DNA of 64,000 nt, from the NCBI GenBank assembly GCA_964035545.1, contig OZ037766.1, positions 13,816,722 to 13,880,721 of the forward strand. Direction: 5' to 3'. Below the pieces are notes generated by a model that searched no databases, was not told the origin of the DNA, and worked only from the letters and a program-made list of their open reading frames with translations. The stretch is from Bugula neritina. Its lineage: Eukaryota > Animalia > Bryozoa. Position numbers and translations under genes: made by a program. This document shows positions 5,134 through 46,600 of the stretch, piece by piece; the first letter of the stretch is position 1, and each line of letters begins with the position of its first letter.

Positions 5134-5775
5134 TTTTCTACAAAATGAATAATTATTTAATTTAAACAGCTTTCACCCTCAAACTCGCTGCCACTTGTTC
5201 CACTTCCTGCTTCCAGTTCCATCTACTCTTTATTTTAAATCAAATGACTAATCTTATACTAATGTAATTGTGAGTAATATTTATTACTATTACTATTACT
5301 ATTAGTATTACTATGTCTATTAGTATCACTGTAAGTATTAAGATTAATTACACTTGCACCAAGTAATTAGATTGAACTTTAGGTTGCTGTTGGTGTTACG
5401 TATACTTATATTTATACTTATACAGTTATAGTAAATAGTTATAAATGTACTTAATCTTATAGTTATTGTGTTAAACTTAAACTAGTAATACTAATAATAT
5501 TACTGTAATACTAATACTAATAGTAATAGTAATAGTAATACTAATGAGTAATGAGTAATACCAATAATGTATTAATTATAATATTAATAACACTAACAGT
5601 AACAGTAAATCATTTACTCATTAGTCATTACTGATTTAGTAAATGTAATAGTAATACTAAATCTAATAGTAATATTTAGTAATATTTCCAAGAAACTACT
5701 GTAAATGTAAGTTTACTATGCAACTACAATTCTCAATTCAAAATCAAAGGTAATGAAATTGCATTATAAACTCAC

Positions 5776-8145: not shown

Positions 8146-8809
8146 TCATCACTATAATATTATTGTTCACTTTGAAAATCGCTTGGTGGTCACCAAGTGC
8201 GATGGTTTGGGGGCCTAGAGTTTAGAGTTCAGACAATGATGTGCATACAGATTCTATCTTTAGTCATCCCAACTAGGGGCTGCTTCTAGCGATATTATTT
8301 CATTTTCATTTAATTTAGATGATTTTTTGCTTACATCGCATTAACTTTAAGTTTATAAGCATGATCCCGGTTGCCATGTGTATTAATTTTTTCTTTAAAT
8401 AATATGGTGCCCGTTAATATTACGGTTTAATAAGGACAATTTGATAAGATATTTTCACACTTTGATGAGTAAATGTTAAAAATAAATTTAATTAGACAGT
8501 GAAGTTCCTTTTCAAGTTCACCTTGAAGATGCAATACAATTTTATTTTTAATTAATAATTTACAAATTAAAATTAATATACTTCTACCTCTAAACTCTAG
8601 TTCTATCTAGTACTAGTAAAAGTAACCATAATGATAATTTTCACTGTTAGTGTTAGGTTAAGAATTTATTTTTATTCCTGGATTCACTTTAAGTTGAAGT
8701 TACTAGTTAGACTTAGTCTTACTCTTAGCAACCATATTCATATTCATATTGGGTTAATGCTAATACCTAATACTAATGGTAATAGTAATACCAATATTAA
8801 TAGTAATAG

Positions 8810-9215
8810 TGTAATGGATTTTGCATGTACTTGTTTCCGGTTGCCGAGATCGGCCGAAATACCGAAAATCGGCGTTTCGGGCTACCGAAAACCCGAAATG
8901 CCGAAGTTCGGTGTTTCGGACTACCGAAATGCCGAAACGCCGAAATTCGGCGTTTCGGATGCCCGAAATGCCGAAGTTCGGCGTTTCGGGCCTCCGATCT
9001 CGGCAACAATGACAAAGCACTGTATCTTGTTGTATATAAAAGCCAGCGAGCTCCAGTGTTAGTCAGTCTACTACTGGAGCTCACTGGCAGAGGACCTTTA
9101 ATATATTATATCATTCAATTAAATAAAGATTTCTTCACTTTTACAATACATCTTGTTCTCTCTAACAAAGAGTATGTTCAGGCACTAGTTCTATTCAACC
9201 CACAAAAATACAACA
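8810..9215 (+). repeat. 5' LTR (406 bp)
   Basis: Starts TGTAATGG and ends ACAACA; TATA box TATATAAA at 9033-9040; AATAAA at 9122-9127; direct repeat of 16446-16851. Confidence 0.97.
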
Positions 9216-9216
9216 T

Positions 9217-9240
9217 TGGTGGCAGCAGTGGGATTTCGAA
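9217..9240 (+). other. Primer binding site complementary to the tRNA-Leu 3' end
   Basis: TGGTGGCAGCAGTGGGATTTCGAA immediately after the LTR; near-complement of the tRNA-Leu end ...TTCGAATCCCAC(C/T)GCTGCCA-CCA. Confidence 0.8.
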
Positions 9241-9265
9241 TAACTAGTTGCCAAAGGGGAACGAG

Positions 9266-10180
9266 ATGGCTCCGCCAGGGGAAACAGCCCCTGGGGCAAC
9301 GGAGACGGAGACACCAACCCTCACAGTAGAGGCTTTGGTTGCAGCCCTCCAGGGATTGCGGGAGCCAAGTCAGGCGCCACCTGGTGACAGGTACCGCCTC
9401 AAGCTCCCGAATTTCGGAGGGGAGGAGGATGTGGAGCAGTTCATCCGCGAGTTCGAAGATGTGGCCACCATCGCTGAATGGCCAGCCCCGGTGCGCATAC
9501 TTCAACTCCGGTCCTGTCTGACAGGCCAGGCGAAGAGCTTTGCTCTTGGGCCTGATGAAGCCCACATCCTGCGGGCCCTCAGGGCCCGATTCGGCCGGAC
9601 AGCCGAAGAGGCTGTGGATCGGCTACAGGCACTGAGGCGAAACCGCAAGACGACGTTAGAAGAGCATGCCAACACCGTGGAACGGTTGGCCCAGGCTGCT
9701 TACAGCCACGCCACAGGTACAGAAAGGAAGCGCCTAGTATACAACGCATTCTTTAAAAGCGTCAACGACTCTGGCCTGCAGCGCTACTGGCTGGCCGCCA
9801 AAGTTCGCACCTTGGAAGAAGCCCTGGAGATGGGCAAGTCATATTTCCAGGTGGAAGGGCTCCAAGAGAGGAGCTTCACCGCACACCAGGTAGCCGAGGG
9901 GGACCCAGAGGACGCCACACCCGTAACTCCACAAGTGTCGGCAGCGACAACTCCGTCGCCAGAACAGGCGCAGTTCGCCGTGTTAGTGGACATGATGAAG
10001 GGTCTACAGGCTACGGTAACCGAACTACAACGGAACCAGGCGGACAGGCGGGCTCCCCGGATACGGGACGACTCTGTCCGCCCCTCACAGCTTACCTGCT
10101 GGGGATGTGGAGCGTCTGGGCATGTAAAGAGACATTGCCCCAAGGGTAGCTTGCCTTTAAACAACCGAGGCTCACGGTAA
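9266..10180 (+). CDS. gag: Gag (capsid-like region + CCHC zinc knuckle)
   Basis: ORF 9248-10180, first ATG at 9266; LPNFGGEEDVEQFIREFEDVA..W capsid-like start and C-terminal CWGCGASGHVKRHCP (CX2CX4HX4C). Confidence 0.93.
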   Translation: MAPPGETAPGATETETPTLTVEALVAALQGLREPSQAPPGDRYRLKLPNFGGEEDVEQFIREFEDVATIAEWPAPVRILQLRSCLTGQAKSFALGPDEAHILRALRARFGRTAEEAVDRLQALRRNRKTTLEEHANTVERLAQAAYSHATGTERKRLVYNAFFKSVNDSGLQRYWLAAKVRTLEEALEMGKSYFQVEGLQERSFTAHQVAEGDPEDATPVTPQVSAATTPSPEQAQFAVLVDMMKGLQATVTELQRNQADRRAPRIRDDSVRPSQLTCWGCGASGHVKRHCPKGSLPLNNRGSR

Positions 10181-10224
10181 CTTCCGCCGACCGTGGGCCC
10201 CCAGCCAACCCCATCCGGGGGAGG
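10156..10224 (+). promoter_or_regulatory. -1 programmed ribosomal frameshift signal (U UUA AAC + predicted H-type pseudoknot)
   Basis: TTTAAAC at 10156-10162 is correctly phased in gag; the -1 frame is open into pol; 6-nt spacer; stem 10169-10178/10190-10199; loop 10181-10189 can pair with 10216-10224. Confidence 0.85.
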
Positions 10225-10233
10225 GGTCAGGGA

Positions 10234-13200
10234 ATGACCAAGAAGACCCCTACAGCGTCTGACGAGATGGGATGGCAGACACCTCGGAGATCTCGGAAAC
10301 CGAAAGGTTTACCCGATCCTCCGGTCATGCCACTCAACACCCGGATGGAGTCAGAAGACGTAGGATGGCAGGCACCTCGGAGATCTCGGAGACCGCAAGG
10401 TCTACCCGATCCTCCGGCCTGGCCACTCCAGAACCGGTTCGCGGGGTTACCCGAGGAAGTCGTGGAGGAGGACTCAGCTTACTCGCAAGAGTACCCCAAG
10501 CTGCCCTCCCGACCTCAGAAAACCCCCGTTGTCTCTAAGACGATGAGGAGGCCCGCTGTGCGGACCCAAGTTGTGTCTCCCCCAGAGACTAACCGCTCCA
10601 GGAGCACCCAACCATATGGAAGCAGCTACTTCCTACCCGGAAAAATTTCGGGTAAAGCTGCCACATTCCTACTGGACACTGGGTGCACTACAAACCTGCT
10701 GAGTAGGCGTCTCTTTGACACTCTTGGTGCCCGAGAGCGGGCGAGCCTCGAGCCGTATGAGGGTGCGCATGGTACGTTGGCGGACGGATCATGCATTCCC
10801 TTCTACGGCATCCTTTCACTGCCTGGACGCATCCGTGATCAAGCAATTCACGAGACATTCATAGTCAGCCAGCTGAAGGAGGACGCCATCCTGGGAATGC
10901 CGTTTCTGGAGAAACACCAGTGTCACATGGATTTCCAGAAGTCAGTGGTGGTGATGGCTGGGAAAGAACTTGTCTGTGTTGACAAGTTCGGCAGGCCCTT
11001 GGTGGGCGGAGTCCAGGTAGTGCGGGACTGCACAGTTCCGGGAAGATCCCAGGCAACTCTTCGCTGCAGGGTCAACTGCAGGGAGATTGCTGACCTAGGG
11101 GTGGTTGAGGGAACGCACGGAGCGATCCGACTAGCAAACAGCCTGAATCGGCTAGATTGTCGGCAAGAGCTTCTCGTGCAGTGTATCAACCCCTTCACGG
11201 AACCTGTCCGATTATCGGCCGGAGCGCTAGTGGGGAAGTACCACTCCATCCAGGACGCGGATGTGGGTCCGGCACTGGAAACAGTGGCCGATACCCAGGG
11301 AAACCCCCCTCGCACCAGCCGAAGAGCAGTCCCGGAGCATATGGCTGACCTGTACGATGGAGCGTGCGGCAACTGTACGAGTAGTACTGAACGCCAAGTA
11401 CTGGCTCAACTACTCGCGGAGTACAGTGATGTCTTCAGTCGTGGTGATGAAGACATGGGGCTGACTAAGGTTATCTCTCACGAGATACCCCTGGCAGCCG
11501 GCACCACTCCCATCAGGCAGCCCACCCGGCGTCTAGGCCCGGAGAAAGAGAAGGAGGTGAGCCGACAGGTGCAATATCTTCTCAACCGGGATCTGATTGA
11601 GCCTGCCCACGGTGCGTGGAGCTCTCCAGTAGTCCTGGTCAAGAAGAAAGATGGTAGCTGGAGGTTCTGTGTGGACTACCGCAGACTCAACAGCGTTACC
11701 ATCCAAGACGCCTACCCTCTCCCACGGATAGATGAGTCTCTGGATGCCCTCGCGGGTAGCAAGTACTTCAGTACTTTGGATCTGCTTAGCGGGTACTGGC
11801 AAGTGCCCCTCAGTCCTGATGCCCAGGACAAAGCAGCATTCATTACTCGCGATGGGCTCTGGAAGTGGAAAGTACTGCCATTTGGACTAACGTCCGCCCC
11901 GGCAACTTTCCAACGGCTCATGGAGCAGGTCCTCAGTGGACTACACTGGAAGACCCTTCTCATCTATCTGGACGACGTCATTGTCATCTCTCCAGACTTC
12001 TCGACTCATGTCAGTCGTCTGCGGGAGGTCTTTGACCGTCTCCGGGCAGCTGGACTCAAGCTGAAGCCCTCCAAGTGTGCACTCTTGCAGCCGGAAGTCA
12101 CGTACCTGGGCCATGTGGTGGGCCGTGATGGGGTCGCTACCGACCCGGAGAAGGTACAGGCTGTGAAGGAGTGGACTGTCCCCCGTGACCTCCCTGAGTT
12201 GCGCGCATTCCTGGGCCTAGTAGGGTACTACCGGCAGTACATACCTGGCTTCGCAGGAGTGGCTCAGCCGTTAAATCGGCTGACCGCAAAAGGGGTCCGG
12301 TGGCAGTGGACGCAGGAGGAGCAGCAGGCATTCGACCACCTCAAGCAACGGCTAATGGAGGCGCCAATTCTGGCGTATCCTGATCCAGCCAAGGAGTACA
12401 TCCTGGACACCGACGCCAGTGACCACAGCGTGGGAGCTGTCCTGTCTCAAGTCCAGGGTGGAAGCGAGGTGGTCGTGGCTTACTACAGCAAGACTCTCGC
12501 GGCCGCCGAGAAGAACTACTGCACCACTAGGAAGGAACTCCTAGCAGTAGTCAAGGCGGTCAAGCACTTTCGGCCATATCTGTATGGGAGAACGTTCCGT
12601 TTGCGAACAGACCATGCATCACTGATATGGTTGTGTAAACGTGCGGAGCCCTCGAGCCAGGTAGCTCGTTGGCTAGAGATTCTTGCCGAGTTCTCTTACC
12701 GGATAGAGCACCGTGCTGGCCGGAAGCACGGGAACGCCGACGGCATGAGCCGCCGGCCGGTAGAGGACTGTAAGCAATGCCTGCACATTGAAAAGCGGGA
12801 CGGGGGACCCGCTCGCCTTGACGTGGAAACAGAGTTAGGGGAAGGCGCCGTCTATCGGTGGGAGCACGGCCATCTTCGGACCGAAACCCACTCAGACGAC
12901 GTCCAGGCGCTCCGCGCCAACCCCACTCTGTACCAGAATGTCAAGGAGCTGTGCCGACTCCAGGAGACGCTACCCGGCGCGGTAGCGGACATTTTCCGGG
13001 CCAAGAAGGAGGGCCGACGACCTAGCGAGGAACAGCAGCGGCAGGGGGACGTTGAGTTCCAACTCCTCTGTCGTCGCTGGGATGCCCTCAAGGTCAGTCC
13101 TGATGGCCTCCTGATGATAACGTTAGCAGCAGACAACCGTCAGCAGGAGAGGGACCGCGTCGTCTGTCCACGCGCCCTCCGACGGGAACTGATCTGGGAC

Positions 13201-16119
13201 ACCCATAAGCAGGCTCATTCTGGAGTCAGTCGGGTCATCAGGTGTCTGCGGCTGCGTTGGTATTGGCCCGGAATGACTCGGGACGTACGACTGCGGGTAC
13301 GGCAATGCGAGGTCTGCCAAGCTAGCAAGCATGGCCGCCCCACGGAAACCACTGGTCGACGCCGGCTATACGCTGGTCGACCGTGGCAAGTAGTGGCGGT
13401 AGACCTCGTCGGGCCTATGCCGTTATCCGCCAGAGGGAACACCTGGATACTGGTGCTCACGGACCACTTTACCCGGTGGGCAGATGCTCTGGCTATTCCA
13501 GACGCAACAGCCCCCACGGTGGCCCGGGCCCTGGACCAACATGTATTCTGTTACCTCGGTTTACCCGAGCAGATACATACGGACCAGGGTGCCCAGTTTC
13601 AGTCCCAGCTCATGGGAGACCTCTGCCGGATATGGGGGGTGAACCAGAGTCGGACCACCCCATATCACCCGCAAGGGAACGGAGTCGTCGAGCGGAACAA
13701 CAGGATGTTGGGTGACGCCCTCAGGAGCCTGCTCCTTGGTCGAGGTCAGGAAGAATGGGACGTGGTGCTGCCGCAAATCATGCGGGCCTACCGCAGCACA
13801 CCACACTCCGCCACGCAGGAGACCCCAAACTTCCTGATGCTAGGCCGAGAGACGCGGGTTCCGGAACACCTGACCTACCATGTTCCTGCCCCCGAGTCAC
13901 CGGTACACGAGTATGTGGAGGGTCTGATAGATATCATGGGCAAAGCTCATGATGCGCTGCGTACCCAGCAGTGGCAGACTCGCACAGAGGACTCGGAAGA
14001 GCCCCCGTTGTACCAGGTGGGGGACTGGGTCTGGATGGTGAGCTATCGTAGGCGACGCGGACAGTCGGCTAAGCTTCAGCCCAAGTTCGTCGGTCCCTAC
14101 TGTGTAGTGGAGGTGCTGCCCAACCACACGTACCGTGTGGAGCGCTCTGGCCAGGTCTCGGTCCAGAGCGAGCAGCGCCTGAAACCTTACCATGCCAGCC
14201 CAGACGCAGTGGGTCAGGCACCACCCTTCTTGGAGCCCAACCGCCAGCCCAACCAGCGAGGGAGAATTACCCAACCCAGAGAGGTGGAAATCATCGTTCA
14301 GAGAGAGGCAGCACGTGAACAGGCCGCCCTACGAGAACAATTAGAGCGGCAACAAAGACAGGGGCAACAATTACCACCATCACAAGCTTCGGAGATACCG
14401 CCCCAACCAGAAGGAAGCGTCCCCACCCATCACACTGATGACAACAGGACCCCTCCTGTTACAGTAGTCGAAGAATCACAAGCCCTGACAGAACCCATCC
14501 AACTCGAGAGAAGCCAGAGAGACAGAAGACCCCCCAGATACTTAGCAGATTATGCAGTAGGACGCCTTGAAGTACCTCCTCGTAGTCTTAGTCCTTATAT
14601 TCCCATATACTATCCTACCTTGAGTGACAATTCTCTCAAAGACTCACAAAAATTTCATGAACAGAAGAAAAACTCAGACCGAAATTCGGTGGGCACGCGA
14701 TTACCTGAGTTATCATTTCAAAATTGGATGGAAATTCCCACGAGTCACGTGGCCATCGCCGCTGTAGGTAAAAATTTTAAAACACGAGGCTCGGCCATTA
14801 TTACTACAGCCATCGCACAAGCAACACGCAATTTAGAAATTAAAATACAAAATTTAAATTTTGATTTTAAACTACAATCGAATTCTAACTCAAACATGGA
14901 CTCCACACTCGTCGAATCTACTAACATCACCTCAGGTATTCCCTTACGATTAGAACCTCCACAAACGGAGTCTAATCAAATTAATGTTGATTGGGGTTTG
15001 TTAGATTCTTTAGAATCTGACTTATTAGAGCCAGATACCGAGATGGGTCTGGAAGGTGACCCTGTCCACGATTTCTTGTTGGACCAAGACGTGGGCTCGG
15101 TCACACTTTCAGACTCATCTCGGCCCCCAGTATGTAGTTTAGTGCCTTATAAAAGTATGCCGAAATTCGGCGATAGAGAGATCGGCTTCTCACAGCCTCT
15201 CCTATCTGTTGTAGGAAATAGTATGGATATAGATGAGGTCGGGTCGAGTTGTACCAACTCCCCCCCTCCCCCGGCCCCTGTCCCGGCTCCCAGCAGCCAA
15301 CAGGGCGCCACTCCACCGACAGGGGTGCCTCCCACCATCATCAGTGCCCCTGTGTCTAACCCGGTCGAGCTCCAACTCTCGGCCGGGGAAGAGCAGGGCA
15401 TACTGCTCGGTGGGGAACCCACGGAGAGAGATGATGACTCCCAGATACTGGCCTTGCCTCGGGCCTTGGTCGCCCGCCAGTACTGGGTCTCTCGAGAGAC
15501 CAACTTAAAAATTAGTCAAACGTGCGGCGAGCCGGGCAACCGCATCTGCCAGCAGTGTCGGAGGAAGTTTTCCTCCACACGGCGGCTGCGAGTTCACGCC
15601 CCGCAGCACTACATTAACGTGTTCTGCCCGTGTGGCGAGTTTTCCTACCAACGCGATTACGTGCTGAGGCACCAACGCATCGCACGCTGCCACACGGGCC
15701 ACACGTTTGCAGTGGACCAGGCCAGTTTCCCCGAATTCCGGGACCTGGTGCTGCCCCACGTTGCGGACCCCCGCAAATGGGCTACCCTTGCCCAAGGGTT
15801 TCCCGCATGCCGCCCAATCAGGGAGGTAGAGGAGGAGCCCGTCGCCACGCCTCAACCAGCGGCCACCCAGCCACTTCGGGTCGTGCTGGCACGGGTCGAA
15901 GGCGGCAGGTCCGGGTCCCCGGGCCTGAGCCAGCGACCCTCGGCGACGGGAAGAAGAAGACGGCCCCAGCGTAGCGCCACCAGCCACGCTGCATCCCTGC
16001 CACTGGAGGAGGAGGTCCGGTCCCTGCGCCGGCGCCTGAGACGATACGAGGACGAGCTGGGAGAGCTGAGACGACGAGTGAGCCGTTTGGAGCGGGCACG
16101 CGATACCGACCAACAATAG
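10234..16119 (+). CDS. pol: Pol polyprotein (protease, RT, RNase H, integrase) with ~520-aa C-terminal extension carrying 2 zinc fingers and a leucine zipper
   Basis: LLDTGCT (protease); YLDD (RT); ILDTDASD (RNase H); HKQAH...CEVC plus VAVD/TDQG/VERNN (integrase HHCC and DDE); KFVGPY (GPY/F); typical IN tail ERSQRDRRPPRYLADY ending ~14553; ORF stays open to 16119. Probably made as Gag-Pol through the frameshift at 10156. Confidence 0.96.
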   Translation: MTKKTPTASDEMGWQTPRRSRKPKGLPDPPVMPLNTRMESEDVGWQAPRRSRRPQGLPDPPAWPLQNRFAGLPEEVVEEDSAYSQEYPKLPSRPQKTPVVSKTMRRPAVRTQVVSPPETNRSRSTQPYGSSYFLPGKISGKAATFLLDTGCTTNLLSRRLFDTLGARERASLEPYEGAHGTLADGSCIPFYGILSLPGRIRDQAIHETFIVSQLKEDAILGMPFLEKHQCHMDFQKSVVVMAGKELVCVDKFGRPLVGGVQVVRDCTVPGRSQATLRCRVNCREIADLGVVEGTHGAIRLANSLNRLDCRQELLVQCINPFTEPVRLSAGALVGKYHSIQDADVGPALETVADTQGNPPRTSRRAVPEHMADLYDGACGNCTSSTERQVLAQLLAEYSDVFSRGDEDMGLTKVISHEIPLAAGTTPIRQPTRRLGPEKEKEVSRQVQYLLNRDLIEPAHGAWSSPVVLVKKKDGSWRFCVDYRRLNSVTIQDAYPLPRIDESLDALAGSKYFSTLDLLSGYWQVPLSPDAQDKAAFITRDGLWKWKVLPFGLTSAPATFQRLMEQVLSGLHWKTLLIYLDDVIVISPDFSTHVSRLREVFDRLRAAGLKLKPSKCALLQPEVTYLGHVVGRDGVATDPEKVQAVKEWTVPRDLPELRAFLGLVGYYRQYIPGFAGVAQPLNRLTAKGVRWQWTQEEQQAFDHLKQRLMEAPILAYPDPAKEYILDTDASDHSVGAVLSQVQGGSEVVVAYYSKTLAAAEKNYCTTRKELLAVVKAVKHFRPYLYGRTFRLRTDHASLIWLCKRAEPSSQVARWLEILAEFSYRIEHRAGRKHGNADGMSRRPVEDCKQCLHIEKRDGGPARLDVETELGEGAVYRWEHGHLRTETHSDDVQALRANPTLYQNVKELCRLQETLPGAVADIFRAKKEGRRPSEEQQRQGDVEFQLLCRRWDALKVSPDGLLMITLAADNRQQERDRVVCPRALRRELIWDTHKQAHSGVSRVIRCLRLRWYWPGMTRDVRLRVRQCEVCQASKHGRPTETTGRRRLYAGRPWQVVAVDLVGPMPLSARGNTWILVLTDHFTRWADALAIPDATAPTVARALDQHVFCYLGLPEQIHTDQGAQFQSQLMGDLCRIWGVNQSRTTPYHPQGNGVVERNNRMLGDALRSLLLGRGQEEWDVVLPQIMRAYRSTPHSATQETPNFLMLGRETRVPEHLTYHVPAPESPVHEYVEGLIDIMGKAHDALRTQQWQTRTEDSEEPPLYQVGDWVWMVSYRRRRGQSAKLQPKFVGPYCVVEVLPNHTYRVERSGQVSVQSEQRLKPYHASPDAVGQAPPFLEPNRQPNQRGRITQPREVEIIVQREAAREQAALREQLERQQRQGQQLPPSQASEIPPQPEGSVPTHHTDDNRTPPVTVVEESQALTEPIQLERSQRDRRPPRYLADYAVGRLEVPPRSLSPYIPIYYPTLSDNSLKDSQKFHEQKKNSDRNSVGTRLPELSFQNWMEIPTSHVAIAAVGKNFKTRGSAIITTAIAQATRNLEIKIQNLNFDFKLQSNSNSNMDSTLVESTNITSGIPLRLEPPQTESNQINVDWGLLDSLESDLLEPDTEMGLEGDPVHDFLLDQDVGSVTLSDSSRPPVCSLVPYKSMPKFGDREIGFSQPLLSVVGNSMDIDEVGSSCTNSPPPPAPVPAPSSQQGATPPTGVPPTIISAPVSNPVELQLSAGEEQGILLGGEPTERDDDSQILALPRALVARQYWVSRETNLKISQTCGEPGNRICQQCRRKFSSTRRLRVHAPQHYINVFCPCGEFSYQRDYVLRHQRIARCHTGHTFAVDQASFPEFRDLVLPHVADPRKWATLAQGFPACRPIREVEEEPVATPQPAATQPLRVVLARVEGGRSGSPGLSQRPSATGRRRRPQRSATSHAASLPLEEEVRSLRRRLRRYEDELGELRRRVSRLERARDTDQQ

Positions 16120-16159
16120 GGCCACTCTTTATATTGACACTGGTGGAGGGAGCATGTTT

Positions 16160-16295
16160 ATTTTATTGCTTTGCATGATACTACTTTTGTTTATTGTTTT
16201 GCATGATATTACTTATTTTATTGCTTTGCATGATATTGCTTTTGTTATTGTTTTGCATGATGTTACTTTGTTTACTACTTACATGATATAGCTTA
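16160..16295 (+). repeat. ~27-bp tandem repeat (5 copies, TTATTGYTTTGCATGAT core) in the retrotransposon 3' UTR
   Basis: GCATGAT/ACATGAT cores at ~16173, 16201, 16228, 16255 and 16281. Confidence 0.85.
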
Positions 16296-16445
16296 TGTGT
16301 CGCATGCTGTTGATTGTTTTTTTTTTTTTTTTTTTACCCACCATATTATTTCTTGTGTTGTCCCCCACGCTGTTTCATTTTTGTTGTTGTTGCGCAAATC
16401 CACATTTCCTCTTATCGGAAAGTATGCTTTCCGATGGGGGGTGTG

Positions 16446-16851
16446 TGTAATGGATTTTGCATGTACTTGTTTCCGGTTGCCGAGATCGGCCGAAATACCG
16501 AAAATCGGCGTTTCGGGCTACCGAAAACCCGAAATGCCGAAGTTCGGTGTTTCGGACTACCGAAATGCCGAAACGCCGAAATTCGGCGTTTCGGATGCCC
16601 GAAATGCCGAAGTTCGGCGTTTCGGGCCTCCGATCTCGGCAACAATGACAAAGCACTGTATCTTGTTGTATATAAAAGCCAGCGAGCTCCAGTGTTAGTC
16701 AGTCTACTACTGGAGCTCACTGGCAGAGGACCTTTAATATATTATATCATTCAATTAAATAAAGATTTCTTCACTTTTACAATACATCTTGTTCTCTCTA
16801 ACAAAGAGTATGTTCAGGCACTAGTTCTATTCAACCCACAAAAATACAACA
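16446..16851 (+). repeat. 3' LTR (406 bp)
   Basis: Matches 8810-9215 at offset 7636; preceded by a G-rich PPT and followed by the TSD ATAG. Confidence 0.97.
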
Positions 16852-17083
16852 ATAGTAATACTCAGTATCACTATCAGTATGAGTAGGATTTTTGCTATGT
16901 CTATTAGTATTACTATTAGGCATTAGCATTGAGTACTGCTGGAGTTTAACCCAATATTAATAATAATAATTAGTAATAATAATAGTTAATACTAACATCA
17001 AGTATGACTACTACTACTATAACTACTACTGCTGCTACTATTACTACTTCTGCTACCAGTATAACTACTAGTATTGTTGTATT

Positions 17084-17579: not shown

Positions 17580-17795
17580 GTTGTATTATACTTGAATTAC
17601 CGCACACGCTGAATTACTTTACTGTTATGTTTTATTCGTATGCGTTGTTATAGTTCGTATGCTTCTTCTCAAAATACATTCTCTTGGTATTAACACAACA
17701 TGGTGGTCAGTACAAAGTTTTAAGTTTATCGTGTTTAATCCGTGCCATCTGCTGTCCTTGGTTTCTTTTGCTGGCGTTATTGACGATTTACTGCT

Positions 17796-20717
17796 ATGGC
17801 AAAGTTTAATCCACCTCCTGAGTTTGACTTTATGCCAGAGAAATGGGCAGAGTGGGCCAAGAGATGGAGTAGATATAGACAGTTTCAAAGTTAGATAAAG
17901 AGGAGGAAGAAATACAAATAAATAGTTTCCTGTATTTTATGGGACCTACAAGTGAAAGCATCTTTATCGGCCTAGGTCTCTCCAAAAAAAAATAAAAATA
18001 AATACAATGAGGTGCTAGCTGGATTTGAGAACTACTTCTCACCCAAGAAATATGTCATCTATGAAAGAGCAAAGTTTTTCAAGCATGACCAGCAGCAAGC
18101 CGAATCAGTAGAACATTATATTCGTGCTTTAAACAAGTTGGCAGACAAATGTGACTTTGGAGATAAGCGAAAGGAGTTTCCTAGTCTTTTTCTGGCCTAG
18201 GTAAAATGAGCCAGGAGGCAGAGATTCAAGTAAACACTGGTTTCCTTCCCCCCTATGCTATTTGTGTTCCACATTGTGCCGTATCCATTATTAAATAAGG
18301 TGAAGGCTGAGTTAGATGAAATGGTAGAGTTAGGAGTCATCTTCCCTGTTTGTGAACCAACTGATTGGTGCTCACCCATGGTTACAGTCCCCAAAGCAAG
18401 TGGTCGTATTCATATATGTGGAGACTACACTCAGTTGAATAAAGTACTCAGGAGGGAGGTATGCCCGATGGCCCATGTCGACTCTAGTCTAACTAAATTA
18501 GGTAATGGGAAAGTTTTCAGCAAGTTGGATGCGAACTCTGGGTTTTATCAGATACCCCTGTCCAAGTCTAGTAAACTCCTTACTACATTTTTGACCCTGT
18601 TTGGTCGGTTTGCTTATCATAGGTTGCCGTTTGGGCTGTCATCTTGCCCAGAGATCTATGCCAAAGTTGTGTCACAGGTTCTTTGTGGTCTAGAAAGAGT
18701 TAATGTCTATAAGGATGATGTTTGTGTCTGGGGCAATACTGTGGAAGAACACGATGCTAGAGTTCGTGCTGTCCTCAGACGCATGTCTGATGCAGGAATG
18801 ACTATGAACAGTTCCAAATGTGAATTTTCTAAAAGTTTGATCAAGTTTCTAGAACATTCAATTTCTGATAAAAACATTCAAGCCAACCTTGAGGCAGTTC
18901 AGGGGATTAGAGGTTTCAGAACTCCTCGGTGTGTCTCAGATGTTTGTAGCTTCTTGGGTATGGCAAATCAGTTGAGTAAGTTTACCCCCAAATTGGCGGA
19001 GCTATCTAAGCCTCTCAGGGATTTTTTGTGTAAGACTTCTCCTTGGTTCTGGGGCGAGGCTCAGTCTATAGCCTTTGCCCAAATCAAAGAGGAGCTGTCG
19101 AGAAATTTCGTTCTTGCGGCTTATGACCCGAAGGCTGAGACCATTACACAGACTGATGCATGCCGGAATGGCATTTGTGCTGTATTGCTGCAGCTTCAGC
19201 TTCTCGTGCTTTGACCGATATTGAGAAGAGGTATGCAACCATCGAACAGGAGGCACTTGGGGTTGTGTGGGCATGTACTAAGTTTAGAAACTACATTACA
19301 GGTATCACAGTCAAGATACAGGCTGATCACAAGCCTTTGATCCCATTACTGAATGAAATCAAACTGGATAAACTGACTGTTCGCATTCAGCGTTTCAGGA
19401 TGAGGCTTATGAGGTTTGCGTATGTCGTTGAACACACTGCTGGTAAGGATAATGTGCTTACTGATGCATTATCTCGCTCACAGGCTTCACTCAGTGTGGA
19501 TGAAGTGGCTTTTGTGGAGGAGGTAGAGTTGGCCGTGAAGAAGAATCATAAGTCGTTTGCTTCTAGTCAGAGGCTCGTGCAGTTAGCAAAGTTACAAAGA
19601 GCTGATGAAGTCTTGGCCCAAGTTATTGAGTTTGTTAAGACCTCATGGCCGGAGTACCTTATCAATCAGGATATACTTCTTTGCCCTTATTTTGAGTCAA
19701 GATCGTTCATTTCTATTCAAGATGGGTTGTTGGCGCTTAGGAACCGCATTGTTATTCCACAAGTTGAGAGATTGGAAGTTCTTCGGACTTTTCATCAAAG
19801 TCATTTATGGTGACCAAGTGCCGTGCTCGGGCCAGGCAGTATGTTTGGTGGTCGGGTTTATCTCAGCAGATTGCTGACATAGTACGCCAGTGTTCCAGAT
19901 GTGTTGGTTTCAGACAATGGTCCCCAGTACGCCAGCCATGAGTTTGAATTGTTTGTTTCTTCTTACCAGTTTGCCCATGTCACTAGTTCACCAAAGCCTC
20001 CTCAGGCTAATGGAGAGGCTGAGATGGCAGTGCAAACAGTCAAGTCCCTGCTCAAGAAAGAGGCAGATCCATACCTTGTACTGTTGGCCTATCGATCTCC
20101 TCTGGAGAATGGCTTGTCTCCTGCTGAGCTGTTGATGGGCCGAAAGCTGAAGACTACTGTTCCCGCGCTTCCTAAGCTGTTAGTCCCTCAGCCTGTAGAG
20201 AGATTGGCAGTTCAGGAGAAAGAAGAGTTGAAGCGAAGTCAAGTGAGAGAGGATTTTGATATTAGCCATAAAGTTGCACCACTTCCTCCGTTGAAACGAG
20301 GCGGCAGTGTGAGAATTAGAGATTTGAACAGGGACGCAGTAGTTATCCAACAGTGCGCACGGAGATCTTGCACTTTTCAAGACACAGGTGGTACTGGGTT
20401 AAGACGCAACCGTAGAAGTCTCACACCAACCCACTCATCTGAGTTGAGCAAGTAGCGTAGCTGTTCAGTTCAAGGACCAACCAATTCATAGTAGTCCCAG
20501 ACAGACCGCTGTATTTGGTACTGAAGCCCAACAATTCTCATCAGATGTTAGGTTGGATGTTCAGCCCCGAGAAAAGCCAGTTCAGGTTAGCCCCTACCAG
20601 GTAGTTGTTCTTCTAGATAGGGCCAAACAAACCCACTCAGTTTCTAGCTCTGCTGTTCGTTTGTTCAAAACTAAGTCTGGTCGCGAAATCCGCGCTCCGC
20701 TAAAGCTTGACCTTTAG
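17796..20717 (+). pseudogene. Disrupted gag-pol of the Mag-like element
   Basis: gag start MAKFNPPPEFDF..PEKWAEW with frameshifts and stops; RT fragment 18255-19214 (WCSPMVTVPK, KLDANSGFYQI, YKDD); RH fragment 19160-19813; IN fragment 19901-20455 (SDNGPQY, NGEAEMAVQTVK); tail KTKSGREIRAPLKLDL*. Protease and part of IN are deleted. Confidence 0.9.
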
Positions 20718-21250
20718 CCTCCTGTCTCGTGCCCTGTTATATTCTGATATCATATTCCGATGTTATATTCTGATATTATAATCTGGTATTATGTTCTCAT
20801 AATGTTTAACATGTTTGTAATTTTATTCTTATTAGCCTATTAATACTTGCTAAATTCATTTATACGCTTTGTATCACTTTTCGTATATCACTCGTGTTTA
20901 CATTTCAGTTGTGTTTGTTTTAGAAAGAGAGGTGTTGTATTATACTCGAATTACCGCACACGCGGAATTACTTTACTGTTTTGTTTTATTCGTATGCGTT
21001 GTTATAGTATGTATGCTTCTTCTAAAAATACATCCTCTTGGTATTAACACAGCAAGTATTACTACTAGTACTACTGCTGCTGCTACTAGCTACTGTAAGA
21101 CTAAGAGTATAAGTGTAGCTACTACCAGTTCTAAAAACGAGTGAAGCAAATACGAAAGTGTAACTAAGAAGTTTTTGTAAAACCAGTAGTAGTAGTAACT
21201 GCAAATAACTTTCTTTTCATTTTTTTATTTTCAGTATGATGTTGCTATTT

Positions 21251-25568: not shown

Positions 25569-35400
<9,832 letters not shown>

Positions 35401-43602: not shown

Positions 43603-46600
43603 TTACATCGGGGTATCTTTTTCATTTTCACTTGCTGATTTCATAGAACATGACGGCCTTTGCAGATTACTCTGCGATTCAGTAGCGCTTCCTTCTGACA
43701 ACTCATTTCCAGATCCAAGTTTGGAGAGACCGGAGGCAATGCTTGTGATGTAGCCCGGGGTGTAGTTCCTGTTCCATTGAATTTGTACGCTGTCACCATC
43801 TGCGCTGAGTATGTTAGAATAGTGCACTGAACCTACAGGTCTGTTTGAGGCCTCTGCAGGACCCCATCCAGCTAGTGGCATCATGTTGATCCTTAGGATC
43901 TATAAAGTTTAATGGTGTTTCTTTATTCACAAGTATTGGAGTTATCTTATCTACATAATTATGTGCGCTACATATTCTTTCTACATTATAAGCATACAAA
44001 TACATGGCAGAATGTCAACAACAAAAGAAAATAGTAAAATAATATTTCTTTGCCTTTACTTTGCAAAACCTTTAATCAAAAGAAGTTAAACTCAAATGAT
44101 GAATCATTTTTTTAGAAATGCTTCCTATAAATATGCATTCTCAAACTAAAAGAAACAATTTAAAAACGGGTGAGCCTGGATTATCATATACACCATAATA
44201 TTATATTTATCAGCATAAGTAGCATACAAAGCATACATACATCATAACCACCATGTCGACAATAGTAATACAGAAACCACCCAGGGATCCACATGATTGG
44301 AAACAGAGCTATGCACCAGCCAAGAGAAATATGAGATGGTGGATATACTAGGCCTGTAGTATACTCTGGCTTTTCGAGAAGTACACAGTTAGCTATGATG
44401 ACCAGCTACAAGAATAAACAAATTATATAATTATTTTGTCAGATGAATATACAGTATAAGAGACAGTGTAACTGCAATATATCATATGTATTTAGAGAAC
44501 AAAATTGAATTTCATCACAAAGTAAAAACAGGCAACTGGTCAACTAATGGCCAGCTGTAGTATCTTCTTGTATTAAAACTAATAGCTTATATACTAGTCT
44601 TGGGGACACAAGTTGAAACAGAATGTATCCCATCTTATTGTCTATTCATTTTCAACTTTTCAGAAGAAATCTACCAAACATGCCTACCACATGCTCCATC
44701 ATTATAATTGTACATTGCACATGTAAAATCACAAGTGATCAACAAATGTCTTTGCTGGAGTCTGCTAAACTCTTGGCAAGCCTCCAAAATATTATTTTTC
44801 ATCTGACTTATTTTGTTGCCTATGTTATGACTTAATCAAATTTGTTTCTTCATTATTCACCAGAAATTAAGTTGGTGTAAATAACCTAAGCCACAAGGTA
44901 ACAAACAGCACTTTAACATTTAGGGTCAACATAAATTCTAGATTCCAGTAAAAAAGATGCCTAAAGAAGATCTTCTTATGCTTTTATATAACCTTGTTTA
45001 ATGTTTTCATAGCGTTTTATTACACAACTACACTGTCTTTGATGTAAGAACACAAAAATGCCTTGAAAGTTATTTTTATGATATCATTTTTTTATACTTT
45101 GCAATTAAACCACACTTTTTTATTACATCTTGAAAGTCATTTTCTTGATGCCCTTATTTTCATACTGAATATCAGTAAATTTAAGATTTGCATGATGTAA
45201 AACATAAAATGCTACAGAAGCTCCATTAAAAATTGCTAAAATAGAGTTGAAGTAGAACTTACACCAACAACAAGAGGAGAGATTCCGAGCCAGCACACCA
45301 TCCAGTAAACATTAGGTTTGAATCCAAGCATCATTTTGATGTCTTCTGAAAATCGTGGGTAGCCATATATGTAGCTGATTGCAATAAGCTCAAGAAGAGC
45401 CACAAACAGAAGGGGGAAACCAGATACACTGTAGTCAACCAAGTTCAACAAATGAATTCCACCCTAGAAACAAAGATACAAAAGTTTTGTAGAATATTGT
45501 GGTACAGAATTCTTTTGTAGAACACATTGCAGAGTAACATCTGGTAAAACTAAACTGCCTCCAACAAGACTTGTGGCACCTAAAGCTTCGCTTCTAGTCA
45601 AAATGTCAGAAATACTTTGGGGCAATACTTCCAAGTTCGTGGCTTCTACATAGCTCAAACTTTCCAGGCCAATAGTTTAGTTGAACTACTATCTCAGTTT
45701 TCCATGACTCAGTTAGATGCTTAATGTTGATAATTCTGACTATTGTTATTCAACTAATACATGTATGTCATGATAAGTTCAGGAACAGTTAAATGGACAG
45801 GTTAATCTTGATAACACTACCAGTGGTACTATGTCTTCCACGGTACAGAAAATAACCTCTGGAGTTACAGTGGATGTGAACTGACCAGCTAGAAACCAAA
45901 TCAGATTGAGGATTTACGCGGTATAACAGATTTTCATTTCCCTATCGAGAAAATAGGTGGTGTAACTCTAGCATATAATAAATACACCATAGAGTTGACA
46001 TTAATATTGACAGCAAGATCAGTTGATAACAGTTGCTTTAGTCACCTTACTGGGCCAAACCCCCTCTTGTCCAATTTGTCTATGCCTCACAATGAATGGG
46101 ATGAACATAAAGTGTGTAGTATTAGACAATTGGTGACAGCAATGCACCAAAACATAGTCACTCAACATACCTGGCTAACCATGGGGAGTCCAAGCAGAAA
46201 CATGAGGAAGCAGAAAGATATTCTGAAAATAATATTGTTCTTTTTTGGTGACAGCCACTCAGAAAACTCGTCTGTCAATGCACTGAGCACGCACTCAACG
46301 ATGGAGAATTGAGATCCAAACCCAAGTGTAGCCATCATAATGAAGAAAAAAACAGACCAAAGAGGAGCAACTGGCATCTTTGATAAAGCTTCTGGGTAAA
46401 CAATAAAAGCTAGACCAGGACCTAAAAAACCAAGAGTAAATTGAAAGAGAAGTAAAGCTACTAAAATTAAAAAAATTAGTTTTAAAAAGTCATTTTTTGG
46501 CATAACAAGATAAACTCTATATTTATCTTTTTGGTATTTGGAGAAAAGTTTAGCATAAAGCTTGCCATTTTTAAGGGTTTATGTCATGTAGTCCACTTTT

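Follow-up and report, generated by a model that had tools for sequence, protein, structure and literature searches.

Complex retroviruses are defined by the transcriptional regulators that they themselves encode. In foamy viruses, Tas (Bel1) is a nuclear activator produced from an internal promoter; it binds both this promoter and the LTR, and it carries an acidic activation domain (PMC517496). In the literature that we searched, one Gypsy accessory regulator has been tested, CERV of the C. elegans element Cer1, a nuclear, Cys-rich and zipper-bearing protein that is made from a spliced RNA and required for genomic RNA export; that study reports no homology outside nematodes (PMC10309623). Other Gypsy elements, the chromoviruses, carry a chromodomain added to the C-terminal end of Pol (PMC12440569). 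No description of an element such as the one analysed here was found in the literature searched.

A Gypsy element with an extended pol frame

In the window (the whole 64 kb stretch of DNA analysed), we found a complete and young Gypsy element, probably of a bryozoan, with all features on the + strand. Its two LTRs of 406 nt (TG...CA; 8810..9215 and 16446..16851) are identical, and a 4-bp target-site duplication, ATAG, flanks the element (8806-8809 and 16852-16855). The TATA box of the LTR, TATATAAAAG, lies at 9033..9042. The primer-binding site, TGGTGGCAGCAGTGGGAT (9217..9234), which we take to be of the tRNA-Leu type, differs by one base in L020, a distant element presented below. A polypurine tract (PPT) is found at 16433..16445. 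These features, together with a gag gene encoding a CCHC knuckle (9266..10180) followed by protease, RT, RNase H and integrase in Pfam, are those of Ty3/Gypsy elements (Metaviridae). Passage from gag to pol would occur by a -1 frameshift at the slippery heptamer TTTAAAC (10156-10162, in the gag frame); a hairpin 3' of this site was not beyond shuffles (z -1.2).

A single open frame of 1989 aa (10150-16119) contains every motif quoted in the earlier note, each where that note had put it. The pol part (10150..14553) encodes the protease, RT, RNase H and integrase domains (H2C2, rve and SH3), the last Pfam domain ending at residue ~1334, and closes on the integrase-end motif ERSQRDRRPPRYLADY (14506-14553). 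As had been claimed, the frame then stays open, for 521 codons. Across 14300-16400 the other two + frames contain 24 and 23 stops, and none of 2000 shuffled tails remained open. Pfam gave no match above cut-off on the tail. The DNA differences listed for the tail number 42 (17 synonymous, 25 non-synonymous and 0 stops); the synonymous share is near the 35% expected for transitions, and they gave no selection signal.

Several parts of the tail had been described from the letters alone. The acidic/hydrophobic stretch was found, with DWGLLDS at 14989; this block (14989..15093; net charge -11 in 30 aa) is a candidate activation region that one subfamily (P0005, P0116, P0165) has deleted and most near relatives keep. 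The Arg cluster GRRRRPQR is also present, in frame (15949..15972), and is likely a nuclear localisation signal. The heptad zipper at 16003..16092 reads LLYLL and VLLV in its two columns, and is predicted to be a C-terminal coiled coil and dimerisation element; the homodimer prediction scored 0.11 against a mark of 0.32. The bZIP basic region follows the pattern N-x7-R/K-x9-L. This spacing is absent in register with the zipper, so that of the proposed basic patch and zipper the heptad coil stands but the bZIP factor was rejected. Two other candidates were set aside, in agreement with the earlier note. The maximum 19-residue hydropathy (KD19) in the tail is only 0.69, so that it has no TM segment; an Env-bearing Gypsy element (errantivirus), for which a signal peptide and a TM glycoprotein ORF are needed, was rejected. 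No chromodomain appears among the Pfam matches to E=1, and the conserved core of the tail is a zinc-finger domain, so that a chromovirus was rejected as well.

The two-finger core and its relatives

The conserved core of the tail (~120 aa, 15454..15826) holds both fingers and their flanking helices, and was modelled by AlphaFold with a pLDDT of 95 and a pTM of 0.86. The two fingers expected from the letters were thus predicted, not as two separate modules but inside one domain. Finger 1 (15547-15609, from CQQC to HAPQH) lies as previously placed; it is a canonical C2H2 finger (C-x2-C-x12-H-x3-H) and aligns by profile with such fingers. Finger 2 is atypical (C-x-C-x12-H-x5-C, 15625-15690). Its CPC at 15625 and HQRIARCH, running to 15693, are as described, but the terminal His is not the probable ligand: within 'RCH' the Cys is kept in 45 of the 55 aligned relatives and the following His in 17, and the finger therefore likely ends in Cys. 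Each of the seven other zinc ligands is retained by 50-55 of these 55 relatives.

In structural comparison, the top-ranking matches are tandem C2H2 pairs that bind DNA, all weak with Z under 4 (Kaiso: Z 3.8, rmsd 2.7 over 57 residues; SALL4: Z 3.4, rmsd 2.6 over 51 residues). The methyl-CpG readers Kaiso and ZBTB38 are among the top rows, tied with others. Foldseek returned nothing at E<=0.001 against the PDB and viral models, the ESM Atlas gave generic C2H2 or unnamed clusters only, and the VIA search with the full tail was filled by generic coiled coils.

Among 7047 candidates, 34 relatives of the tail share 35-78% identity with it, and the family comprises 313 clusters (50% identity) at E<=0.001 and 144 at 1e-10. 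The two-finger domain is common to the whole family and the terminal coiled coil to most of it. By our own coil score, and with near-copies counted among the matches, the heptad coil exceeded all 20 shuffles in 67 of the 91 core-domain matches with >=60 aa downstream, 61 of these coils lying no more than 40 aa from the C-terminus. Five further proteins (P0184, P0185, P0165, P0163 and P0116, the last aligning from 'LADY' onward) are likewise fused in frame across the integrase-end motif, and the spacer between integrase and tail aligns as protein (23-66% identity per block). Two others, P0152 and P0178, combine a protease with the tail and have no RT or IN match; the tail therefore persists without integrase. 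A scan of 2237 candidates yielded no fused Pol of near-complete length (1093-3481 aa), a weak result as most records are short contigs. Related loci were confirmed neither among 193 pattern matches in metagenomes nor among 153 in viral contigs (nor among the 9 obtained there with an RT query), and phage records gave no match.

Of 31 pattern loci, the core profile matched L020, L021 and L025 only, and gag/pol matches occurred in L020 alone. This distant element (cores 41% and gags 34% identical to those of the window) has the same tail ORF immediately before its PPT and LTR. The helix at its C-terminus scored no better than some of the shuffles, and its contig contains no integrase end. The tail might have been absent or broken in sister copies, an outcome that the earlier note had named as fatal; it is instead conserved across many diverged lineages, fused in frame in the five proteins above and placed before the PPT and LTR in L020.

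The same domain also occurs in host-annotated genes of Watersipora subatra and Bugula neritina. These uncharacterised bryozoan genes (XP_067940963/4, XP_067944745, KAF6040922/3) are true homologues of the core; XP_067940963/4 and KAF6040922 end in a coil, like the tail, whereas some of these host genes have two cores or share a distinct N-terminus. In a core tree of 108 rows and 127 columns, built by a quick method with 50 of 105 forks open, host genes fall in two places, which gives no direction of transfer.

Candidate internal starts, LTR array and possible functions

An AT-rich in-frame spacer (14554..14895), a candidate internal promoter or leader, separates the integrase end from a 407-aa accessory protein (14896..16119) predicted as an independent product, whose Met lies in a Kozak context (AAAC ATG G). 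The spacer contains the palindrome CCGAAATTCGG at 14679, and a block near 14770-14840 is covered better by diverged copies than its flanks. Read from protein rather than DNA, in 21 hand-picked and mutually related rows of 186, Met 14896 is present in 14/14 rows filled at this column and in 7/7 rows extending upstream, while the 22 columns before it match in 0-3 of these 7; D/G/E (G at +4) follows in 14/14 rows, vs. 198/721 for all internal Mets; and a second Met, at 15223, 3' of the acidic block and giving a 298-aa form, is conserved in 14/21. A TATA motif at 15148, read as P-Y-K, is followed by CCGAAATTCGG at 15160 (15148..15170 together). TATA[AT]A matches nowhere else in the internal region, and P/L/S-Y-K/R, again a protein-level reading, occupies this position in 21 of the 23 relatives queried. 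This pattern suggests that, besides the Pol fusion, a free form of the tail is produced.

Directly 5' of the LTR TATA box, the U3 contains a candidate response element (8840..9007; 16476-16643 in the 3' LTR), in which 17 CCGAA/TTCGG half-sites form nested inverted repeats, including three CCGAA-N-TTCGG palindromes (8901, 8940, 8971). The 17 half-sites compare with 1.3 expected in the LTR (shuffle maximum 6); for the spacer as a whole, the figures (4 vs. 1.4, maximum 5) are not beyond shuffles. The two LTR tiles rank 1 and 2 of 159 window tiles. CCGA is the top 4-mer both in this LTR (z 10.8; null maximum 5.9) and in that of L020 (z 9.0; null maximum 4.8), which cannot be aligned with it. The 64 kb contain the palindrome three times per LTR and otherwise only at 14679, 15160 and 9407. 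At 15160 and 9407 it corresponds to in-frame P-K/N-F-G codons and may be a coding coincidence. Every half-site contains a CpG. As a source of the array, a MITE insertion, evoked by 14-nt perfect inverted arms (8840-8853 / 8994-9007), is disfavoured because no flanking duplication is visible and the word is arranged otherwise in L020. The array may also be read by a host factor, the comparison being of two LTRs that both belong to tail-bearing elements.

The earlier note had seen in the tail a dimeric DNA-binding activator or an integration-targeting domain. The first of these predicted roles gained support from the half-site array in the LTRs of both this element and L020, and we give a probability of roughly 45% to a dimeric autoregulator like foamy-virus Tas, which would bind the LTR palindromes and activate transcription. 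The zinc-finger and coiled-coil protein encoded after integrase, for which translation likely begins at an internal start, would be expressed from a subgenomic RNA initiated at an internal promoter near 14680-15170. The Arg cluster would direct nuclear import, the coiled coil would form a dimer, the two finger domains would read inverted CCGAA/TTCGG half-sites in the LTR, and the acidic block would activate transcription of the element. The Pol-fused copy would arise solely after the -1 frameshift, at a low level, and could deliver the regulator to newly inserted copies. In its logic, this scheme would match Tas while being built from unrelated parts.

Such an autoregulator explains the conserved in-frame fusion less well than integration targeting does, whereby the tail would be part of integrase and its fingers would anchor the integration complex on selected DNA or chromatin, or grip the U3 array so as to hold the cDNA ends. 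This alternative accounts for the fusion in the window and the five other proteins and for a spacer alignable as protein, and has the chromodomain as a precedent (PMC12440569). However, a fusion domain needs neither a conserved Kozak Met nor a TATA box, the tail is kept without integrase in P0152/P0178, and an acidic block and terminal coil would not be expected of a tether. The signs that the tail is translated on its own, besides being fused to Pol, weaken integration targeting, which we consider unlikely. Both U3 arrays fold as RNA into hairpins far stronger than those of shuffles (z -12.3 and -6.7), and a role at the RNA level therefore also fits: a Rev/Rex- or CERV-like regulator, equipped with the Arg cluster and the coil, could oligomerise on 3' U3 hairpins of the genomic RNA and drive the export or stability of unspliced RNA, as CERV illustrates (PMC10309623). 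But palindromes form hairpins regardless of their role, the stems of two unrelated LTRs are built from one word, CCGA, the array lies directly 5' of a TATA box, and the nearest folds, albeit weak, are DNA-binding finger pairs, which makes this role rather improbable.

The same DNA-binding protein could also act negatively, by repressing the LTR for copy-number control, or defensively, by shielding the CpG-rich U3 from host silencing. Met 15223 would provide a short form devoid of the acidic block, possibly a repressor, and one subfamily has lost this block; the CpG of the half-sites and the tied rows of Kaiso and ZBTB38 are also in line with such a role. As the acidic/hydrophobic block persists in most near relatives, we find such a negative or defensive role quite improbable. 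Finally, the host genes with the same domain and the near-neutral DNA differences would suit a captured host exon, a passenger without function for the element; the retention of ligands, terminal coil and pre-PPT position across elements as diverged as L020 makes this very improbable.

Comparison with known systems

Beyond the autoregulator, we tentatively advance a broader and possible, if somewhat doubtful, picture: invertebrate Gypsy elements would include a widespread lineage without a name that is 'complex' in the retroviral sense, each member encoding a dimeric sequence-specific transcription factor of a new zinc-finger family, with an internal promoter and activator and repressor isoforms, that reads the CCGA array of its own LTR, while bryozoan hosts would have the domain among their ordinary genes by capture or domestication. 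Should the tail prove to be an activator that binds DNA at a recognisable cognate site, LTR retrotransposons would have acquired autoregulatory circuits independently, and the element supplies a ready protein-site pair. Pfam has no family for the core, which uncharacterised bryozoan genes also contain; it would therefore be a case of transcription-factor exchange between host and transposon.

Like chromoviruses, the element has an extra C-terminal Pol domain, but the tail is 521 aa long, has its own conserved starts and contains no Pfam chromodomain. CERV, compared by description, is likewise a Gypsy-type accessory regulator with a Cys-rich region, a potential leucine zipper and an NLS; it differs in its spliced RNA sharing gag exons, its C4-type loop and its action on RNA export (PMC10309623). 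With tandem C2H2 factors (Kaiso, SALL4, ZBTB), the tail shares a canonical finger 1 and a finger pair that superposes with an rmsd of 2.3-2.7 over 50-57 residues (Z under 4), whereas its C-x-C...H-x5-C finger 2, its five-residue link and the packing of both fingers in a domain of ~120 aa set it apart. Neither in sequence nor in fold could Tas be linked to the tail, and Tas is not known as a zinc-finger/coiled-coil protein. Tas belongs to Retroviridae rather than to Gypsy/Metaviridae, and its ORF stands alone, 3' of env, rather than being joined to integrase. Candidate Tas-like traits of the element are the conserved Met, the TATA-like codons and the palindrome common to U3, 14679 and 15160 (possibly a coding coincidence). 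Tas would be the functional model for the tail, here known from sequence: an activator encoded by the retroelement, with an internal promoter and an acidic domain.

An intact Gypsy element with an extended pol frame

The pol tail belongs to a complete LTR retrotransposon (8810-16851), whose LTRs, an identical pair of 406 nt each (TG...CA), are flanked by the target duplication ATAG. The PBS lies at 9217 and the PPT at 16433. The gag gene (9266-10180) and pol (10150-16119) differ by a -1 shift of frame, and TTTAAAC at 10156 would allow -1 frameshifting. The Pfam domains of pol follow the Gypsy order PR, RT, RH, IN. As the LTRs are identical and the frames unbroken, these data indicate a very recent insertion. 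Diverged relatives are abundant, with 242, 282 and 168 contigs matching 14250-16450 in three public runs of one study.

Early in the pol frame, ahead of the protease, lie two tandem 93-nt copies (10243-10428; 81% alike), and joints in contigs of run X1 suggest that their number varies. A 21-nt inverted repeat (9042-9088), directly after the LTR TATA box, would fold into a hairpin close to the 5' end of the RNA. On the reverse strand, the window also holds a four-MORN-repeat exon (34945-35400), which we take to be junctophilin-like, further probable exons (26405-30119) and a sodium:neurotransmitter symporter exon (46162-46578; Pfam SNF).

After the motif that we, like the earlier note, assume to be the integrase end, the frame does stay open for 521 codons (14554-16119), whereas 0 of 2000 shuffles stay open. 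Every motif quoted in that note was found where it had been placed, and a hydropathy check agreed that the tail has no TM segment. The second finger is present, but its proposed His ending (HQRIARCH) was not retained: it likely ends in Cys, since 45 of 55 aligned relatives retain this Cys, against only 17 for the following His. The spacing of a bZIP is absent from the tail, and this reading of the zipper was rejected.

A conserved module associated with Gypsy elements

Searching with the last 298 aa retrieved 34 relatives (35-78% identity), none with a name or a Pfam domain, and a profile search gave 313 clusters (E<=0.001). They share a core of about 120 aa with two fingers (15454-15826), in which seven zinc ligands are each present in 50-55 of 55 rows. 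Its fold was predicted with a pLDDT of 95 and a pTM of 0.86; among solved structures, it most resembles pairs of DNA-binding C2H2 fingers in tandem, but weakly (Z 3.4-3.8). By a simple in-house score, and with near-copies included, the C-terminal heptad coil (16003-16092) exceeds all 20 shuffles in 67 of the 91 domain hits with enough sequence. Species were named for 4 of the 30 clusters looked up, all Watersipora subatra or Bugula neritina; going by these homologues, the element's host is probably a bryozoan. Judged from its sequence, the tail is a real, conserved protein module.

The tail also travels with Gypsy elements, a point that the earlier note had raised. Two homologous proteins (P0184, P0185) run in a single frame from the integrase-end motif through the fingers to the coil; P0165 and P0116 cross the same integrase-tail junction, as does P0163, a more distant protein (core 36%), and P0042 and P0186 continue into a translation resembling a PPT and LTR start. 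In the only DNA-level relative, locus L020, the core and a helix close an ORF no shorter than 726 aa; beyond it come a PPT, an LTR of about 717 nt, a PBS that is almost identical, gag (34%) and protease, an order that suggests assembly through a collapsed LTR. This linkage rests on these relatives rather than on the 313 clusters at large; a search of 2237 candidates (1093-3481 aa), most records being short contigs, yielded no fused Pol of nearly full length.

One ORF of 1145-1208 aa (P0152/P0178) combines a Gypsy protease with the tail domain, with no match to RT or integrase, and is possibly a non-autonomous derivative keeping the regulator. Short broken homologues of the second finger region occur at two other loci (L021:294-668; L025:76-536 and 1405-1920) with no gag or pol match nearby, those of L025 adjoining a protein-kinase-like ORF. 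Some core homologues (P0123, P0187, P0188, P0191) are annotated as bryozoan host genes. Two of these proteins have double cores, and an N-terminal Y-x-G-x3-L-Y-H motif without Pfam match is common to P0123, P0188 and P0191; two core-bearing Bugula genes have consecutive locus tags. Host genes may be either donor or domesticate of the core, and the tree does not separate the two.

Signs of separate expression and a candidate target

We aligned 21 related proteins (not DNA), picked from 186 for coverage of the spacer (14554-14895). A Met at 14896 is found in 14/14 rows filled at that column, among them all 7 that reach upstream; in the 22 columns ahead of it, 0-3 of these 7 agree with the window. 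Directly after this Met comes D, G or E in 14/14 (background 198/721), implying a G at +4, and the window itself reads AAAC ATG G. Seven rows have a gap at this column, three of them with the acidic block (14989-15093) deleted and, by eye, M-G retained just before the deletion. A second Met (15223) is kept in 14/21 rows. The element's interior has a single TATA[AT]A match (15148), which falls on codons P-Y-K, a pattern seen in 21/23 relatives queried, again as proteins. These are signs that the tail may also be expressed separately from Pol.

Directly upstream of the LTR TATA box, U3 carries 17 CCGAA/TTCGG half-sites (1.3 expected; shuffle maximum 6), whose inverted arrangement suits a dimer. 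The palindrome CCGAA-N-TTCGG occurs three times per LTR and at 9407, 14679 and 15160, and is absent from the other 56 kb; two internal copies coincide with P-x-F-G codons. An unbiased count of words puts CCGA at the top for the window LTR as well as for that of L020, and the two have no alignable sequence in common; this comparison covers two LTRs, both tail-bearing, with no tail-less control set. The palindromes are a concrete candidate binding site for the tail protein; the sample of two LTRs, the coding matches of two internal copies and the RNA folding of both U3 arrays speak against it. A degraded second Gypsy element (17580-21054; RT about 33% identical to the intact one, frames broken) is bounded by 121-nt repeats (17580-17700 and 20934-21054; 93% alike) containing no CCGA words.

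Possible functions and known systems

The most likely reading, to which we give a probability of about 0.45, is that the tail autoregulates its element as an activator. The protein would be made from the internal start, imported through the Arg cluster (15949-15972) and dimerised by the coil; the dimer would bind the CCGA palindromes of U3 and those close to the internal start, and the acidic block would activate. This block is lost in one subfamily. Integration targeting is an unlikely role; the element sits in an AT-rich trinucleotide-like repeat (8762-8809 and 16852-17071) recurring at 5270 and 60185, a context that bears on any targeting model. Somewhat less probable is a Rev-like control of RNA, with which the folding of both U3 arrays (window and L020) into RNA hairpins is consistent, and repression or anti-silencing seems slightly more doubtful still. 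That the tail is a passenger exon is very improbable. In favour of it, the 42 tail differences listed, the best-supported of several hundred and nearly all outside the fingers, look near neutral: they comprise 17 synonymous and 25 non-synonymous changes and 0 stops, a synonymous share near the neutral 35%.

No zinc-finger/coiled-coil module after a Gypsy integrase is described in the literature searched, although Repbase, Dfam and GyDB may already note such tails. The word "zinc" is absent from the main text of PMC13524379 and from the accessible portions of PMC6238403. The search included the accessible portions of PMC7828637, PMC8220671, PMC7264820 and PMC6338049 and of the papers on CERV of Cer1 (PMC10309623), foamy virus Tas (PMC517496) and the chromodomain precedent (PMC12440569). 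Beside these known systems, the tail is an apparently undescribed accessory module, of putative function, of a Gypsy lineage.
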